A stretch of DNA of 64,000 nucleotides from Gammaproteobacteria bacterium (GCA_965238225.1 OZ250183.1:512001-576000), one strand, 5' to 3'; positions 4,861 to 37,724 are shown, counted from the stretch's first letter. Notes: generated by a model from the letters alone, not told the origin. Made by a program: numbers and translations.

Positions 4861-5892
4861 ATGCGCAAGCTGACACTTTTCATTCCAGGCTTCTTCAGTC
4901 CTGTCAGTGAAACGCTTTCTAAAATTACACCAGATGTTCCTGCTATAGAAAGATGTTTCAGATTTGGCACATCAAAAAGTGTTCAAGGCGCAAGTACTCA
5001 AACTACGGGGTTTACCCACTCCTTATTTAGGTTGTTCGGTTTCCCAGAAAAGGAGCATGATTATCCAGTGGCAGCAGTTACACGTCTTGTTGATAATGAT
5101 CATGATCTTGAGGGCTTTTGGATGCGCGCCGATCCAGTCCACCTGCGTCCAGAGCGTGATACCGTTGTGTTGCTGGATGATTCTTCATTCAATATTGACA
5201 AGCATGAGGCGTTAATTTTTGCCGCCGATCTTCAGAAAGTCTTTACCGAGAGAGGTATTGAGTTAGAAGCGCCTACTAATAATCGTTGGTATATTAAGTT
5301 AAAGAAATTGCCCGATGTAAGCACCACACCAATACATGAAGTTTGCGGTAATGATATTGATAAAAATCCAGTCGTAGGCGTAGGCAAGGTTTTATGGGAT
5401 CAACTGTCCAATGAAGCTCAGATGAGCCTGCACAATTGTCCGTTGAACTCTGCGCGTGAAAAGCGCGGTGAATTGTCTGTGAATGGTTTATGGCTATGGG
5501 GGGCAGGCGAATTGCCAAAGCCTGAAAAGCGAATCTGGTCACGCGTATTTTCTGATGAGATTACGACTCAAGGCTTGTCTATTTTGACGGGATCTCCCTA
5601 TGCAGATTTGCCTGACTCACTCAAAGTGCTTATCAATCAATCAGAAGAACAGGATGATATATTGGCTGTTATTTCCTTTGGTTTGCGTCATCAGCAGTAT
5701 TTTGATCATAATGGTTGGCAGGATTTCATTGCTTATCTAGAAGAAGAATGGTTTTCTGAGGTTGAAAATTTAATCCAGAAAAAAGAGCTGGATGAATTAA
5801 TATTGTTAACAGGAGAATATAAGTTAACTGTTTCAAAATTTTCATACAAAAAATTCTGGCGCAGACAAAAGTCATTTTTAAGTTATCGTTAA
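4861..5892 (+). CDS. Conserved protein of the RpfE / cofactor-independent phosphoglycerate mutase-like family
   Basis: WMRADPVHL and NEAQMxLH...VNGLWLWG motifs; position between thrC and recJ. Confidence 0.7.
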   Translation: MRKLTLFIPGFFSPVSETLSKITPDVPAIERCFRFGTSKSVQGASTQTTGFTHSLFRLFGFPEKEHDYPVAAVTRLVDNDHDLEGFWMRADPVHLRPERDTVVLLDDSSFNIDKHEALIFAADLQKVFTERGIELEAPTNNRWYIKLKKLPDVSTTPIHEVCGNDIDKNPVVGVGKVLWDQLSNEAQMSLHNCPLNSAREKRGELSVNGLWLWGAGELPKPEKRIWSRVFSDEITTQGLSILTGSPYADLPDSLKVLINQSEEQDDILAVISFGLRHQQYFDHNGWQDFIAYLEEEWFSEVENLIQKKELDELILLTGEYKLTVSKFSYKKFWRRQKSFLSYR

Positions 5893-5910: not shown

Positions 5911-7644
5911 ATGCCCATTGCAATTAAACGCCGCCTCATTGAAGAAATTGATTTAGCCTGCGATATTCATCCTGTCTTAAAGCGTATTTATGCCGCTAGA
6001 AATATTAAAACCGCTGATAATCTTGACTACTCCTTGCAAAAATTATTGCCTTATGAAGACCTAAGTAATATTCAGAATGCCGTTGCACTATTAGAAGATG
6101 CCTTAAGATCGGAAAAGAAAATACTCATCGTCGCAGACTTTGATGCCGATGGCGCCACGAGTTGTACTGTCGGTATGCAGGGCTTAAGGCAAATGGGGGC
6201 AACTGATGTGTCTTATATCGTGCCAAATCGTTTTGAGTTTGGTTATGGTTTAAGTCCGGAAATTGTTGAAGTGGCGGCGGCAATGGCTCCTGATCTTTTG
6301 GTGACGGTGGACAATGGAATTTCCAGTGTAGCGGGCGTACAGCTTGCGCGTGACAAAGGCATTGATGTATTGATTACTGATCACCATTTGCCTGGAAAGC
6401 AATTGCCAAATGCCAACGCTATTGTGAATCCAAATCAAATCGGAGATAAATTTCCAAGCAAGATGTTAGCAGGTGTCGGCGTTATGTTTTATATCCTGAT
6501 TGCTTTGAGAGCACATCTTCAGGCTAAAAACTGGTTTCAGGATCAAAAAATACCTAAGCCAAACTTGGCAGAGCTACTGGATTTGGTTGCGTTGGGCACT
6601 GTGGCAGATGTCGTTCCTTTGGATCAAAATAACCGTTTGCTCGTCGCCCAAGGTTTAGCACGTATTCGTTCTGGTCATTGTTGCCCAGGAATAAAAGCCT
6701 TATTGCTTATTGCGAATAAAACATTAGAAAGCGTGACAGCACAGGATATGGGCTTTGCCATAGGGCCTAGGCTAAATGCAGCAGGACGTTTAAGTGATAT
6801 GTCATTAGGGATTGAATGTTTGATGAGTGATGATGAGATACAAGCTAAAGATATGGCGACCAGCCTAGATGAACTGAATAAGGAAAGGCGCGAGATTCAA
6901 GATGAAATGCAGGAGCAGGCATTGCTGGATATTGCAGAACTTGATCTGGATACAATAGCAATGCCATTTGGCGTGTGTTTATTTAACGAAAGTTGGCATC
7001 AGGGCGTTATTGGTATTCTAGCATCAAAGATAAAAGACAAACTTCACAGACCAGTGATTGCTTTTGCTAAAGACAAAGATGGGTTCATTAAAGGCTCAGC
7101 GCGTTCAATTTCTTGTGTCCACATTCGTGATGTACTGGACACCATTGCCGGACAATATCCCGGGTTAATCGACAAGTTCGGCGGTCATGCTATGGCTGCT
7201 GGCATGACACTTAAAGAGGCAGACTTCGAGGCGTTTAAACAAGCATTTGATAAGGAGCTAAAACGATTCGTACGTGCAGAAGATCTAAATGGCAGTTTGC
7301 TTTCAGACGGAGAACTTACTACAGCAGAAATTACCTTCGGTTTAGCCAAAGACATTCAAAAAGCAGGGCCATGGGGGCAGGGGTTTTCTGAACCTCAATT
7401 TGATGGCGAGTTTTACTTGGTTGAGCGCCAAATAATTGGCGAGAAACATCTAAAATTAAAACTGCGCACACAGGAAAATGGACAAGGACAAGGCAAAGCG
7501 ATAGATGCAATCGCCTTTAATTTTACTGATGAAGAATGGATAGAAAAACCAGAGCGAGTGCATGTAGTCTATCGCCTGTGTATCAACGAGTTTCGCGGCA
7601 GGAGTAAGCTACAACTGATCGTAGAAAATATAGAGCCTGTTTGA
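5911..7644 (+). CDS. recJ: Single-stranded DNA exonuclease RecJ
   Basis: DFDADGATS, TVDNG, ITDHH (DHH), GGHAMAAG motifs. Confidence 0.97.
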   Translation: MPIAIKRRLIEEIDLACDIHPVLKRIYAARNIKTADNLDYSLQKLLPYEDLSNIQNAVALLEDALRSEKKILIVADFDADGATSCTVGMQGLRQMGATDVSYIVPNRFEFGYGLSPEIVEVAAAMAPDLLVTVDNGISSVAGVQLARDKGIDVLITDHHLPGKQLPNANAIVNPNQIGDKFPSKMLAGVGVMFYILIALRAHLQAKNWFQDQKIPKPNLAELLDLVALGTVADVVPLDQNNRLLVAQGLARIRSGHCCPGIKALLLIANKTLESVTAQDMGFAIGPRLNAAGRLSDMSLGIECLMSDDEIQAKDMATSLDELNKERREIQDEMQEQALLDIAELDLDTIAMPFGVCLFNESWHQGVIGILASKIKDKLHRPVIAFAKDKDGFIKGSARSISCVHIRDVLDTIAGQYPGLIDKFGGHAMAAGMTLKEADFEAFKQAFDKELKRFVRAEDLNGSLLSDGELTTAEITFGLAKDIQKAGPWGQGFSEPQFDGEFYLVERQIIGEKHLKLKLRTQENGQGQGKAIDAIAFNFTDEEWIEKPERVHVVYRLCINEFRGRSKLQLIVENIEPV

Positions 7645-18120: not shown

Positions 18121-18224
18121 AGCTTTTAACCTTGTTTTTAAACCTAAAAATTATGATGATAAATCTCACCTTAAAGTTAAAAAAGCAGTCACAAAAAACG
18201 CTGGCAAATAGAGGTAATTAACTA

Positions 18225-19733
18225 ATGTCAGAAAACATGCGAGGGTTTCTGTTTAGCGCAATGGAGTTTATGGCAGCATTGTTTATTATCATATTGGGTC
18301 TTGTTGCTTTTGCTATCGTTATCATCTACATCTTTGATGTTGCTCAGACGAAATCTTCAATTAAACGAAATTACCCTGTTGTAGGTCGCTTCAGATATTT
18401 TTTCGAACATATAGGCGAATTTTTCCGTCAGTATTTTTTCTCAATGGATCGCGAAGAGATGCCATTTAACAGGGCGCAGCGTTCTTGGGTTTATCGCGCA
18501 GCAAAAAATATTGATAATACGGTTGCCTTTGGATCAACGCGAGATCTTAGGCCGCCAGGAACAATATTATTTGCAAACTGTCCGTTTCCAACATTAGGCG
18601 AAGATACTGTCACCCCTGATGCTGTAACGATTGGGTTTTATTCAGATAAACCGTACACGACTTCATCAATATTCAACATATCAGGAATGAGTTTTGGTGC
18701 GATATCGAAGCCAGCTGTGTTGGCGTTATCAAATGGTGCACGAAGAGCAGGTTGTTGGATGAATACAGGCGAGGGCGGCTTGTCGCCTTTTCACCTTGAA
18801 GGTGGCGCGGATATCGTTTTTCAAATTGGTACTGCAAAATATGGCGTCAGAGATGAGTCAGGTGAATTGTCAGATGAAAAATTGCGTGAAATAGCAGAGC
18901 ATGACCAAGTGAAAATGTTTGAAATCAAGTTGAGCCAGGGTGCAAAACCTGGTAAGGGCGGTATATTGCCTAGCGGCAAGGTGACTAAGCAAATTGCAAA
19001 GATCAGAGGGATTGATGTCGGCATTGCTTCCATTAGTCCAAATCGGCATACGGATATTAGAAACAATGCTGACTTGCTTGATATGATTGCACACATCAGA
19101 AAAGTCACTGGTAAACCAGTAGGATTTAAATCCGCGATTGGTGTATACGGGTGGCTTGATAGTTTATTTAACGAGATTAGAGAACGTGGTGTGGAAAGCG
19201 CACCAGACTTCATCGCCGTTGATGGTTCAGATGGAGGTACAGGTGCGGCACCTATGCCTCTTATTGATGATATGGGCTTGCCTTTACGTGAAGCTCTACC
19301 TTTAGTCATTGATAGATTGAACAAATATGGCCTAAGAGACAGAGTCAAAATAATATCTTCTGGGAAATTAATTACGCCAGCAGGTGTTGCCTGGGCGCTG
19401 TGCGTCGGCGCTGACTTTGTGACATCAGCGAGAGGGTTTATGTTTGCGCTCGGGTGTATTCAAGCCTTGCAATGTAATAAGAATACCTGTCCTACAGGCA
19501 TTACAACACATAATAAGAAGCTACAACGTGGATTAAATGCTAGTGATAAGGCTATTCGTGTAATGCATTATGCAAAGAATATGACTTATGAAGTTGGCAC
19601 CATCGCTCATTCTTGCGGTGTGGCCACACCAAGGAAATTACGTCGTTTACACGCAAGAGTTGTGACTGACAACGGATTATCAGTACCATTGAATGAGTTG
19701 CATCCGGATGTTGAGTCATTATTTACATCTTGA
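18225..19733 (+). CDS. FMN-binding glutamate synthase family protein with N-terminal membrane anchor
   Basis: MSFGAIS, NTGEGG, EIKLSQGAKPGKGG, CIQALQCNKNTCPTGI Fe-S motif. Confidence 0.88.
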   Translation: MSENMRGFLFSAMEFMAALFIIILGLVAFAIVIIYIFDVAQTKSSIKRNYPVVGRFRYFFEHIGEFFRQYFFSMDREEMPFNRAQRSWVYRAAKNIDNTVAFGSTRDLRPPGTILFANCPFPTLGEDTVTPDAVTIGFYSDKPYTTSSIFNISGMSFGAISKPAVLALSNGARRAGCWMNTGEGGLSPFHLEGGADIVFQIGTAKYGVRDESGELSDEKLREIAEHDQVKMFEIKLSQGAKPGKGGILPSGKVTKQIAKIRGIDVGIASISPNRHTDIRNNADLLDMIAHIRKVTGKPVGFKSAIGVYGWLDSLFNEIRERGVESAPDFIAVDGSDGGTGAAPMPLIDDMGLPLREALPLVIDRLNKYGLRDRVKIISSGKLITPAGVAWALCVGADFVTSARGFMFALGCIQALQCNKNTCPTGITTHNKKLQRGLNASDKAIRVMHYAKNMTYEVGTIAHSCGVATPRKLRRLHARVVTDNGLSVPLNELHPDVESLFTS

Positions 19734-34381: not shown

Positions 34382-34410
34382 ACTATTTAATTCTCATTTT
34401 TTATGGTGGC

Positions 34411-34493
34411 ATATAACGCCCGCCTCAGCGGCACCAAAAAGCAGTGGCAGTCCAGCGCAGCTTGCTGCGCGATTGTGCGCAAACTTGTTATGC
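34411..34493 (-). mobile_element. attC site (83 bp)
   Basis: Minus strand GCATAAC-AAG...GCGCAGCAAGCTGCGC...GCTGAGGCGGGC-GTTATAT; the upstream ORF stop TAA lies inside R''. Confidence 0.85.
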
Positions 34494-34764
34494 GGCGTCA
34501 TGTAGTTTTTCTAATATCTTTACGGTTTTAAAACGATATTTCCAAGATAAGTAAATACCGCCTACTAAGGTAACCCACCAAAAAAAGTAAGCACCACCTT
34601 TTGTCCTCGTTAGATCTACGTAAAAGTCAAAAACCATTGTGTCATTTATATCGCTACCAAATAACCCCCCTTGAAACAAAAGAGCTATCGTTTAGAAAGA
34701 GGATAGCGACAATGATTAGAGAACTTAGCCCCCAGCTAATATATCTTAATATTTTAGTGCTCAT
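34488..34764 (-). pseudogene. Frameshifted small membrane-protein cassette gene
   Basis: RBS AAGGA plus ATG at 34764 (MSTKILRYISWG...), continuing in another frame (FQGGLFG...HDAA*) to a stop inside the attC; 277 nt is not a multiple of 3. Confidence 0.65.
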
Positions 34765-34784
34765 ATCTTTCCTTATTTTAAAAA

Positions 34785-34844
34785 ATATAACGTCTTGCTC
34801 ATCGGCGCAGCTTTTTGCGCGTCCGCTGGAGCTATTTGTTAGCC
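34785..34844 (-). mobile_element. attC site (60 bp, classic 59-base-element form)
   Basis: GGCTAAC-AAATAGCTCCAGCGGACGCGCAAAAAGCTGCGCCGATGAGCAAGAC-GTTATAT. Confidence 0.92.
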
Positions 34845-34849
34845 ATTTT

Positions 34850-35253
34850 TTATTGATGATCATTAAGCCATTGCTGTACGAGGTGATCATTTTTAGGACC
34901 CCACTGTGTGCAAATTGCATAGCAAAAACCATTCCGTATGAATTCAAACTTCCATGTCCAGCGATTGACACCATCACGAGATTTTACTGCTTGCCTTTTT
35001 GTTGCTTGATTTTCAGTTGAAGGCACTTTGATAAATAGAGGGAAACCAATTCCAAAAAGGTCTTTTGATGTGGGTTTATTACATAGTTGTTCTAGCTCAT
35101 GGTCTGCGATGGATTTCGCAGCAGACGAGATACTTTATTGTTGTTCTATTTACTTCATAAGAAGGGCCGAGCCTAGGAATTTCAGGTTGCTGAATCAATA
35201 ACGACCGTTTGTGGGCCATGTCTGCGATTTTAGGAATTTCAATAGTTGGTCAT
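34850..35253 (-). pseudogene. Frameshifted cassette gene of unknown function
   Basis: RBS plus ATG at 35253 stops after 4 codons; a startless open frame of about 94 codons (ADHELEQLCNK...YAICTQWGPKNDHLVQQWLNDHQ*) ends 5 nt before the attC. Confidence 0.6.
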
Positions 35254-35368
35254 TGATCCTTTATTTTTTTCGAAAAAATCAAGTGTAAATTCTGTTTTTA
35301 TGGCTAACTATTAGTAGACATCCTAATATACTATAAAATACCACATGCCTTCACCGTTCTCTTTAGCG

Positions 35369-35426
35369 GCCTAACCTTTGAATTCAGCGAATTGCATAAG
35401 CAGTCGACTGGAATGATTTGTTAGCT
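35369..35426 (-). mobile_element. attC site (58 bp) of the nirK cassette
   Basis: AGCTAAC-AAATCATTCCAGTCGACTGCTTATGCAATTCGCTGAATTCAAAG-GTTAGGC, starting 4 nt after the nirK stop. Confidence 0.88.
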
Positions 35427-35430
35427 GTTT

Positions 35431-36546
35431 TTAGTTTTTGATAGGGCTAGGCTTTTTAACCTGCTCCATCAAATCATTATTCCATTTACCTTTAACTTGA
35501 ACATGTGCCACACCACCGAGTATGAATGCCTGAATTAAATCATGATTTAAATAGGCATATAAACCTGGTTGTTTAAAGGTGTAGATAGCGGCGACTGCCT
35601 CGCCACCATTCACATGCCAAGTTTCTCTATCAACAGTTGGGGTGTTTCTAAACGAACCACCTGGCCAAACTAAATCCCCATGACCACCTATTAGATGAAT
35701 GCGGGAATCTTCATTAGCTTGTGAATGAATAAATAAAACCGTTTCGCCCACTTTAGCTTTCATTGCATTTTTACCCGTTAAGGCACCTTTTTTACCGTTA
35801 TAAGTTACATGAGTTGGTACCAATCCACGCATAACTTTTAGGGTGTCGCCAAAAGGCTCTAGTGCATTTGAATATCGTTTATATTTACCATTTTCATCTT
35901 GTGGAATATACCAACCCTGCTCACCAATGTAATAGGCTCTATCATAAGTAACATTTTTACCTTTATTGTCTTTTAGTCCATCTTTTGGCAAAATCATAAT
36001 TGCCCCATACATTCCTGAAACTACGTGATAAGGTATCATAAGCCCACCTGGCGCACAGTGGTAAACATAAGTGCCTGGTTTGTCTGCCTTAAAACGAAGA
36101 ACTACTTGCTCACCTGGGGATACTTTAGTCAAAGCCCCGCCACCAAGAGCACCAGTTGAGGCGTGAAAATCAATGTTGTGCAGCAATAAATTGGTTTTGG
36201 GATTTTTGAGTGTTAATTCAACATAATCACCTTCATGCACGACCATGATTGGTCCTGGATTAGTGCCATTAAAAGTCATTGCTTGGACAAAAACACTTGG
36301 TTCAATTTCAATTTCTTTTTCTTCAATTATCATTTCCATTTCAATAATTCTAGGTTTACCAGAATATTTTTGTTGATGTTTGGGTAGAAAAGGTGGCACA
36401 ACTAGGATTTGTTTCACTCGCTCCAAACCTTTGATATTTGATTGAACGCCAATATCAGCAATATAAGGTTTCGAATTTTCACCAGAAAATAATGATGATG
36501 AAAATAACATTGACGCACATAGCAAACTTATTTTTAAATTTTTCAT
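35431..36546 (-). CDS. nirK: Copper-containing nitrite reductase (NO-forming), in an integron cassette
   Basis: Signal peptide; HNIDFH, YVYHCAP, HVVSGM, HLIGGHG, YLNHDL supply the type 1 and type 2 Cu ligands and catalytic Asp/His. Confidence 0.95.
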
Positions 36547-36633
36547 TTTATTTCTCCAAAGCCCTCAATAAAAAAACAGTTAGATGTGAGGACAGCCACA
36601 TAACTTGTTATTAGATTAGATGAGTTAACTAAC

Positions 36634-36725
36634 ACCTAACGTTGTGTTAAGGGGCGCAAGCCGCATCGCGATGCAGCTTTACTGCGTCCAGTGCCGAAGG
36701 CGCTCAGTTGATTGACTTGTTAAAC
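36634..36725 (-). mobile_element. attC site (92 bp) of the TIR cassette
   Basis: GTTTAAC-AAGTCAATCAAC...GCCTTCGGC...GCATCGCGATGC...CCCCTTAACACAAC-GTTAGGT. Confidence 0.88.
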
Positions 36726-36758: not shown

Positions 36759-37516
36759 CTATTTGTCTCTTTTCTTTTCATGCATTACGCCTTGGATCAC
36801 TACCTGCTTGTTTGTTGGTGAAGTGACCTCGACCAAAAAAGGAAAACCGGGAACAGTATTTCCATCTACGCCAATAAATTGCGCATTGTAGGTTTTGCCA
36901 TCGCTTAAGGGTATTATATTTTCGTGAAAATTAGTGGTAAACATATTACCAGATTTATATTGAAATTCGACATCATCTTTTTCCATGTTGGTTAGAAACA
37001 TATAGTGCGATACGGGCTCTAAGTAATGTTCAGCATGAATTTCAACGAATGTTTATTGGAATCATCCTCAGTAAATTGACATGCTTTAAGATTTGAAAAC
37101 TGTTGAGAATCGAGGTTGAAGGTATTGTGCCCAGATAGAACATCTACCATTTGGCGAATGGCGACTTCGAAGCCATTGTTAAATAGGTCTATGTTGAGAT
37201 TTTGCATTAGTATAGGTGGCATCAAACAATCATCAAGTCTGACAGGTATTATTTTAATATCGCCGTTTACCTTTTTCATTAAAGCATTGTGCCACTCTAG
37301 CTTGACCATTTCGCTCTGAAGGCTATTTCTGGAGACAAAGAGAAAAAAAAGCTTAGAGTCACCAAGCCCTTCATTCATTTTGCCTACAATGCTGTTCCCG
37401 GGCTGTATAGACCAAGAATCGTAAAATACATTTTCCTGACCGACAGCATCACGCAATCTTAATGCTACCCGTTCAACTATGGCCTTGTCCCTGTGATTGT
37501 ATGATATGAATATCAA
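36759..37516 (-). pseudogene. TIR-domain protein cassette gene with one frameshift near 37055
   Basis: IFISYNHRDK, VFYDSWSIQPG, VSRNSLQSEMVKLEW, IIPVRLDD; the frame TFVEIHAEHYLEPVSHY runs into ORF 36759..37001. Confidence 0.8.
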
Positions 37517-37539
37517 GGTGCTTTCTCCTTGGCGTGTAC

Positions 37540-37565
37540 GTTTAACGCCGTATTCATTTTTGGTG
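37540..37565 (-). mobile_element. Core recombination site at the start of the first cassette (attI, or the right end of a truncated attC)
   Basis: GTTAAAC at 37546-37540 exactly complements the GTTTAAC R'' of the same cassette's attC and abuts the intI remnant. Confidence 0.65.
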
Positions 37566-37724
37566 CATGTTTTGCGGAGTTTCTTTTGCTACGCACCTTT
37601 TAGAGACAGGCTATGACATTCGTACGATTCAAGATTTATAGGGCATAAGAATGTAGAACCCACAATGATTTACACCCATATACTAAAATCTGGCGGGCAA
37701 GGTGCTCAAAGTCCATTAGACAAT
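37566..37724 (+). pseudogene. intI: Integron integrase C-terminal remnant
   Basis: [50 protein letters not shown] with frameshifts, matching IntI box II and the C-terminal SPLD. Confidence 0.9.

Follow-up and report, generated by a model that had tools for sequence, protein, structure and literature searches.

The copper nitrite reductase gene nirK found in a 64,000-nucleotide stretch of DNA (hereafter the window) is very probably the second cassette of a degenerate chromosomal integron and would at one time have been moved by an integron integrase. The host is an uncultured gammaproteobacterium of marine type, and the locus points to integrons as one of the routes behind the patchy occurrence of nirK. 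Three characters of an integron cassette are found at this gene: an attC site on its 3′ side, a 5′ G|TTRRRY boundary that is complementary to its own R″ box, and a place in a co-oriented array that adjoins an integrase gene (intI) remnant. An earlier note on this DNA had read nirK as a cassette from its two flanking sites; that reading is borne out here by an attC site recognised by a covariance model, by a co-oriented row of four such sites, and by the divergent intI remnant, which was absent from the note. The features of the locus are collected in the table.

Features of the nirK integron locus, with positions counted from the first nucleotide of the window
Feature	Positions	Strand	Evidence or content
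intI remnant	37582-37724	+	TIGR02249 matches of 25.4 and 27.9 bits, in two frames
Core site GTTAAAC, start of cassette 1	37543-37549	-	read from the sequence
Cassette 1 cargo, TIR-domain gene	36759-37516	-	two ORFs, 37019-37516 and 36759-37001
attC of cassette 1	36634-36725	-	covariance model 15.6 bits, E 0.08
nirK cassette, second in array	35375-36639	-	bounded by G|TTAGGT and by the G of its own R′ (1265 bp)
nirK	35431-36546	-	TIGR02376 460.5 bits; structure alignment 467 bits; dN/dS 0.08-0.09
attC of nirK cassette	35369-35426	-	covariance model 29.9 bits, E 7.5e-6
Cassette 3	34791-35374	-	only short or broken ORFs
attC of cassette 3	34785-34844	-	covariance model 40.4 bits, E 8e-9
Cassette 4	34417-34790	-	small ORFs
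attC of cassette 4, last detected	34411-34493	-	covariance model 19.0 bits, E 0.009

The nirK ORF, the only copy in the genome, is intact, encodes a protein of 371 amino acids with a signal-like segment at the N terminus, is preceded by its own ribosome-binding site, and ends in a TAA stop codon (35433-35431). Its product covers positions 2-325 of the 326 in the NirK equivalog profile, well over the cut-off of 296.3 bits, contains two cupredoxin-type Pfam domains, and aligns with solved NirK structures. In the alignment to 7p2f_A, the copper-site motifs HNIDFH, YHCAP... and NH are conserved; their residues are presumably the ligands of the type 1 and type 2 copper sites together with the catalytic Asp and His. 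The dN/dS ratio given in the table was obtained from the window nirK and the copies of two Cycloclasticus MAGs (G001 and G002), at a dS of ~1, and by these values the three copies appear to be old and functionally constrained. The age of this divergence also accounts for the lack of alignment between their non-coding attC sequences. The window NirK is predicted to be a periplasmic enzyme that reduces nitrite to NO, and it is probably still functional. The complete gene is bounded by GTTAGGT (36640-36634) and, 4 nt past its stop codon, by a 58-bp attC site, exactly at the positions that had been proposed.

The attC sites were located with a covariance model that was built from 20 attC sites adjoining intact integron integrases in five genomes (G002, G015, G016, G017 and G022); its structure was given by the pairing of the R boxes and of the L boxes. 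The window sequence was absent from the training set, and the calibration was short, so that the E-values are rough. In a search of both strands of the 64-kb window with the filters off, the four best matches are all confined to 34411-36725 of the minus strand, and the match ranked fifth reaches only E 2.1. The element behind nirK, which by the earlier note would have to satisfy an attC model, passes the one built here. The R′ box of the attC site of cassette 1 is the GTTAGGT that forms the 5′ boundary of the nirK cassette; taken alone this site is weak, yet it lies exactly at the predicted place and is the fourth-best match in the window. As for specificity, the model gave no matches at E<=1 in 78 of the 80 nirK loci of the genome collection or in the loci of five relatives, and among those 80 loci it found attC sites at the G002 locus only. 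The 13 matches listed at E<=1 from 954 kb of other nirK loci all fall inside that one locus, and the model is thus not promiscuous. Six matches were obtained in the 484 kb of metagenome nirK loci.

Simpler approaches were less useful. Counting of core heptamers was dropped as evidence for attC sites, since GTTAGGY is rarer in the window (four occurrences) than in shuffled sequence (9.4 expected). A hand-made pattern of R″, R′ and L boxes was too unspecific, with 81 matches in the genome (~3 per 64 kb), and a second pattern scan returned the two best window sites together with two that are likely false and missed sites that the covariance model finds. A repeat search on the arrays of relatives recovered no attC family, because the attC sites of the relatives are too unlike one another in sequence. 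The sites within the window array likewise differ from one another and form no uniform family.

The attC site of the nirK cassette (35426-35369, AGCTAAC...GTTAGGC) is composed of the R″ box AGCTAAC, a 5-nt spacer, the L boxes, a 6-nt spacer, and the R′ box GTTAGGC; the L boxes carry additional bases on the 5′ arm. When reverse-complemented, AGCTAAC agrees with the GTTAGGT at the start of the cassette at six of seven positions, as the earlier note had correctly counted. In length, boxes and spacers the site resembles 58-bp sites that adjoin the intact IntI (503 bits) of the same-family genome G016 and those of the same-genus genome G015. The box pattern common to the G016 sites and the nirK attC comprises xxCTAAC, AAATY/AAGTC, ATTCCAG.CGAC..., ...GCTGAAT, TCAAAC/TCAAAG and GTTAGxx, and by this comparison the nirK attC appears homologous to the sites beside the intact integrase gene. 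The same 58-nt layout is found three times at one locus (L124:814-871, 1825-1882 and 2725-2782).

Core genes flank the array: those for pyruvate dehydrogenase and an aminopeptidase, together with msrB, lie to one side, and the other side is occupied by addB/addA-like genes. The intI remnant corresponds to positions 267-314 of the 315 in the integrase profile (the last ~48 codons) and is interrupted by a frameshift and a TAG stop; all of intI 5′ of profile position 267 is absent, and the last 20 residues match the true IntI loci of relatives. The remnant is divergent from the cassettes, ~940 bp upstream of the nirK cassette boundary, in the canonical orientation. The first core site, GTTAAAC (37549-37543), is the exact reverse complement of the R″ box GTTTAAC in the attC site of cassette 1, and its position suggests that it is the junction at which this cassette begins. 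Only ~32 nt lie between the intI remnant and the first cassette core (37517-37581 region). Cassette 1 carries a TIR-domain gene (PF13676 TIR_2, 92.2 bits; PADLOC TIR families). In the nirK cassette, the core G|TTAGGT lies 94 nt ahead of the start codon. Cassette 3 contains no clear gene: an ORF at 34850-35026, for example, has no Pfam match, and apparent fragments are present besides. The condition of this cassette suggests that its cargo has decayed.

Integrons are common in the host lineage: integrases over the TIGR02249 cut-off are encoded in 4 of 10 same-genus genomes and in 11 of 24 same-family genomes. In the host genome as a whole no intact intI was found, the best TIGR02249 matches reaching 82 and 81 bits against a cut-off of 265, so that an integrase gene over the family cut-off, as expected of a functional integron, is absent. 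The two matching tyrosine recombinases (full-length frames of 314 and 300 amino acids) are read as probably XerC/D-like. No recognisable attI site is present at the locus or in the genome, and the proteins encoded on either side of the array (AddB-like, PepA-like, MsrB and others) have no match at the short IntI loci of relatives. A single deletion seems to have taken ~800 bp of intI together with attI; it may have been produced by the integrase acting at a secondary site. As there is neither an intact intI nor an attI, nothing in this genome can move the cassette now. The folding of the attC site is also weakened. Bottom-strand folds of attC sites beside working integrases have energies of -13 to -16 kcal/mol with z-scores of -3.8 to -4.9, and the nirK attC folds at -5.9 kcal/mol, with z-scores of -0.44 and -0.99 that are no better than those of shuffled sequence; its central stem has lost G-C pairs, which accounts for the weak fold, and the architecture is retained. 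The nirK cassette thus appears to be a fossil, and the fold predicts that it would probably be a poor substrate even with an integrase supplied in trans.

The distribution of NirK and its tree argue that the gene is foreign to the host genus. NirK is encoded in only two of the ten same-genus genomes, at 72% and 63% identity to the window protein, and the closest proteins (84-86%) come from Cycloclasticus-labelled MAGs, metagenomes, a record labelled 'uncultured Thioglobus', and Nitrosomonas cryotolerans; Nitrosococcus oceani NirK is 79% identical. The best relatives are G001 and G002, with NirK proteins 86% identical to that of the window. At the DNA level, nirK is 82% identical between the window and these MAGs, and the other aligned genes are 64-71% identical. 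In a quick maximum-likelihood tree, from which one truncated row (L059, 260 amino acids) was left out, the window NirK groups with sequences of Cycloclasticus, 'Thioglobus', Nitrosomonas and Nitrosococcus in a clade of 13 rows (SH-aLRT 95), and the same-genus rows lie outside an enclosing 22-row clade with a support of 100. Inside the 13-row clade resolution is poor, and the three rows with a cassette context form no exclusive group.

In both Cycloclasticus MAGs, GTTAGGT is found 63-64 nt ahead of the nirK start codon, with a conserved ribosome-binding stretch on its 3′ side and unrelated sequence on its upstream side. In fact, nirK alone is common to the window locus and the G001 and G002 loci. 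The earlier note had held that homologues sharing the window flanks in non-integron contexts would count against a cassette. Beyond nirK nothing is common to the three loci, and the elements behind nirK in the two MAGs are not recognised by the covariance model. In G001 the model finds no attC site behind nirK, and the core site is all that is present; the element directly behind nirK in G002 has attC geometry with ATT in place of GTT and reaches only 9.6 bits (E 3). The G002 gene does lie at the far end of a co-oriented row with seven attC matches (E 3e-5 to 0.17), and an intI remnant is located ~12 kb away, divergent as in the window. This remnant and that of the window have only a stretch of integrase coding sequence in common, which argues for independent decays. 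G002 additionally carries an integrase over the cut-off (442.7 bits). Its nirK is neighboured by a 365-aa ORF, presumably for an ACR3-type transporter, and by a small ORF that begins like a lipoprotein gene. As the 5′ boundary recurs in other genomes beside different genes, we infer that the nirK cassette was mobilised in the past.

Two kinds of short repeated elements were observed in the relatives. In the array of G002 (L098), a repeat of ~110-120 nt is present in at least three copies (~5745-5860, 7260-7380 and 18200-18315) that lie in or beside attC sites on both sides of nirK; a small mobile element and a structured RNA are candidate identities for it. In addition, short elements built on an inverted repeat around GGGGTCAGAG...CTCTGACCCC (L100 5240-5330 and 5940-5975; L102 205-400) are inserted in or near the attC sites of the intact G002 integron and recur in G001. 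These elements look like MITEs.

Over a broader sample of 162 nirK loci, GTTAGGT occurs within 150 nt upstream of the gene in six, compared with four matches in control stretches, which consisted of the opposite strand of the same 162 stretches and, where available, the next 150 nt upstream; the enrichment is modest. The metagenome comparison comprised 80 nirK loci. On one of these contigs (L187), which encodes a NirK of 64% identity, an attC site of 23.9 bits begins 5 nt past the stop codon, and its R″ box GTCTAAC is the exact reverse complement of a GTTAGAC core located 37 nt ahead of the start codon. On the same contig, ~130 nt comprising the 3′ end of the upstream gene and its tail (985-1115) are repeated directly past the nirK attC (2377-2505). 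The L187 cassette looks as if it lies inside a duplicated segment, which is unusual for integron insertion and may be an effect of assembly. Weaker candidates for nirK cassettes are found at L169 and L138/L104, L104 being the locus of a same-genus genome (G011) that also encodes IntI. A different arrangement is observed on L161, where an integron array adjoins nirK and the gene itself is outside the array. Two attC sites of 44 and 37.6 bits (4984-5499) lie there on the opposite strand, 2.3-2.8 kb downstream of a 62%-identical nirK.

The nirK genes of SUP05-type mussel symbionts (L011, L013, L014 and L136) belong to the same clade as the window gene, with proteins 80-84% identical to it, and are found in a different setting. 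In these loci a regulator gene and a TTGA...TCAA palindrome, which in our judgement resembles a box of the FNR/NnrR type, precede nirK, and a gene of 752 codons, presumably encoding a qNor-type NO reductase, follows it. No attC matches were obtained in these loci; their context is that of a conventional regulated operon, unlike the cassette of the window.

The source sample provides a second view of the locus. Two sequencing runs that contain the stretch were made from one sample, which is probably the source of the assembly. In run X1, a single contig of 1448 nt covers 35275-36722 with no differences from the window, and the attC sites that bound nirK are therefore confirmed by a second assembly. 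The depth of the nirK contig is 28.9, compared with 11.5 and 14.6 for the flanking contigs (~2-2.5 times), although summed contig depth is not equivalent to copy number. Alternative flanks diverge from the window at 36722, 35432 and 35305, none of which is a G|TT crossover point, and one of them supplies a canonical GCCTAAC R″ box. The cassette region is thus polymorphic in the sample, though not at the canonical crossover points, and there are hints that the nirK unit occurs in more than one context within that community. At the joints between contigs, 69 nt (35190-35258) and 423 nt (34382-34804) are left out. The run X1 contigs also lack 5 nt at 37052, which would place both TIR ORFs in one frame, and another 5 nt, at 37557, are absent in both runs; these differences are either assembly indels or differences between strains.

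These data bear on three other accounts of the locus. It is very improbable that nirK was placed in the array by an assembly error in which repeated attC sequence joined strains present in the same sample. None of the contigs listed spans the whole 3.5-kb stretch, and the uneven depth and the presence of other flanks in the same sample would be expected of such a join; the genome, however, is a single contig of 1.72 Mb rated 100% complete, and both bounding attC sites are found inside one error-free contig, so that the anatomy of the cassette is independent of the join. Extremely improbable, in turn, is the account in which the flanks are chance look-alikes of attC sites and nirK is an ordinary chromosomal gene near a decayed integron. 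It could draw on the depletion of core heptamers, on the many genomic matches to the simple pattern scan, and on the weak fold z-scores of the nirK attC, but it leaves unexplained why both sites score as they do under the model while lying flush with the ends of the gene, why the nirK attC is near-identical to sites beside an active integrase, and why nirK is foreign to the genus in both distribution and tree.

A third account accepts the cassette anatomy and attributes the arrival of the gene, together with the variation between strains, to general recombination or the uptake of a multi-cassette segment instead of the movement of a single cassette by an integrase. Several observations would suit it: the unit present in the sample contigs takes in most of the upstream attC site and ~95 nt of the next cassette, the alternative flanks begin off the G|TT points, intI is dead at this locus, and a dS of ~1 among the three 86%-identical nirK genes makes any integrase event an old one. 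It is nevertheless clearly improbable, as the 5′ boundary coincides with a core site in three genomes that differ in their neighbouring genes, and as the R″ box is complementary to the first core of its own cassette (six of seven positions in the window, seven of seven in L187), a relation expected of circular cassettes and not of segment transfer.

On the preferred reading, in which nirK is a cassette of a degenerate integron, the integron integrase would once have excised the 1265-bp unit as a circle by way of folded bottom-strand attC sites, and the circle would then have been inserted into the array. Through this capture, the genome would have gained a nirK that is far less similar to those of its own genus than to the genes of Cycloclasticus-type MAGs, Nitrosomonas cryotolerans and Nitrosococcus oceani. 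The platform later decayed: of intI only the last ~48 codons were left, and both attI and the promoter of the cassettes disappeared. The cassette is now fixed in place, with a weakened attC hairpin, and the enzyme has stayed under purifying selection. A further proposal is that nirK cassettes form an old, dispersed marine lineage, that integron capture has been a real vector of the patchy spread of this NirK clade across classes, and that a mobile cassette was either the ancestor or a descendant of the chromosomal nirK genes (79-86% identical, in two classes) of Cycloclasticus-type bacteria, of SUP05-type sulfur oxidisers, and of the ammonia oxidisers Nitrosomonas cryotolerans and Nitrosococcus oceani. 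This wider proposal is put forward tentatively and is on balance unlikely.

In the host, NirK appears to be an orphan step and may serve nitrite detoxification, NO production, or a pathway shared within the community. The genome contains no match to NarG and no match to NapA anywhere near the cut-off, and a tblastn search of the genome with the 752-aa symbiont protein found no qNor-type NO reductase with that query. Electrons would be supplied by a cupredoxin or a cytochrome c encoded elsewhere; a pseudoazurin-like ORF in another part of the genome (G000:1204645-1204926), which at 88.4 bits is below the cut-off of 109.85, could be the donor. Promoter signals are not above chance (12 found, 12.9 expected), and a terminator scan was likewise at chance level. 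Transcription of nirK would now depend on read-through or on an unrecognised promoter.

The locus can be compared with known types of integrons. Similar to cassettes of the sedentary chromosomal integrons of Vibrio, Xanthomonas and Shewanella, the nirK cassette consists of one ORF with a short leader and a 3′ attC, has G|TTRRRY boundaries, and lies in a co-oriented array that is divergent from intI. The differences are that the window array is tiny (four attC sites), its integrase is a remnant, its attC sites are dissimilar, and its cargo is a respiratory nitrogen-cycle enzyme. IntegronFinder recognises CALIN, clusters of attC sites without an integrase, and degenerate integrons of the In0 type. 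As in these categories, several attC sites are present in a genome that has no working integrase gene; unlike a CALIN, the window keeps an intI pseudogene fragment in the canonical divergent orientation, as in a decaying complete integron and not an orphan cluster. Integron cassettes are reportedly rich in phage-defence genes (bioRxiv 10.1101/2024.07.02.601686), and the TIR cassette beside nirK fits this description.

What is new here is the cargo; the kind of element is already known. Unusual cargo in integron cassettes is itself a known kind of thing. The earlier note knew of no described nirK cassette, and in the portions of the literature covered by a search there is likewise no report of an integron cassette that carries nirK or another gene for a copper nitrite reductase, although supplementary cassette tables could hold one. 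NirK makes NO, the committed step in turning fixed nitrogen into gas, and the distribution of nirK is famously at odds with species trees, its transfer vehicles having rarely been identified. Whereas NirS needs heme d1, NirK is a single-gene enzyme without a dedicated cofactor pathway and is therefore the kind of module that an integron could move. The integron described here is a fossil, and cassette-borne nirK is rare among the loci examined. The locus nevertheless gives a concrete example of a nirK cassette, whose ends are defined and which is suited to a recombination assay, in addition to an integron-rich lineage and related copies in other arrays. It also extends what integron cassettes are known to carry, beyond resistance, toxin-antitoxin and phage-defence genes, towards respiratory metabolism.
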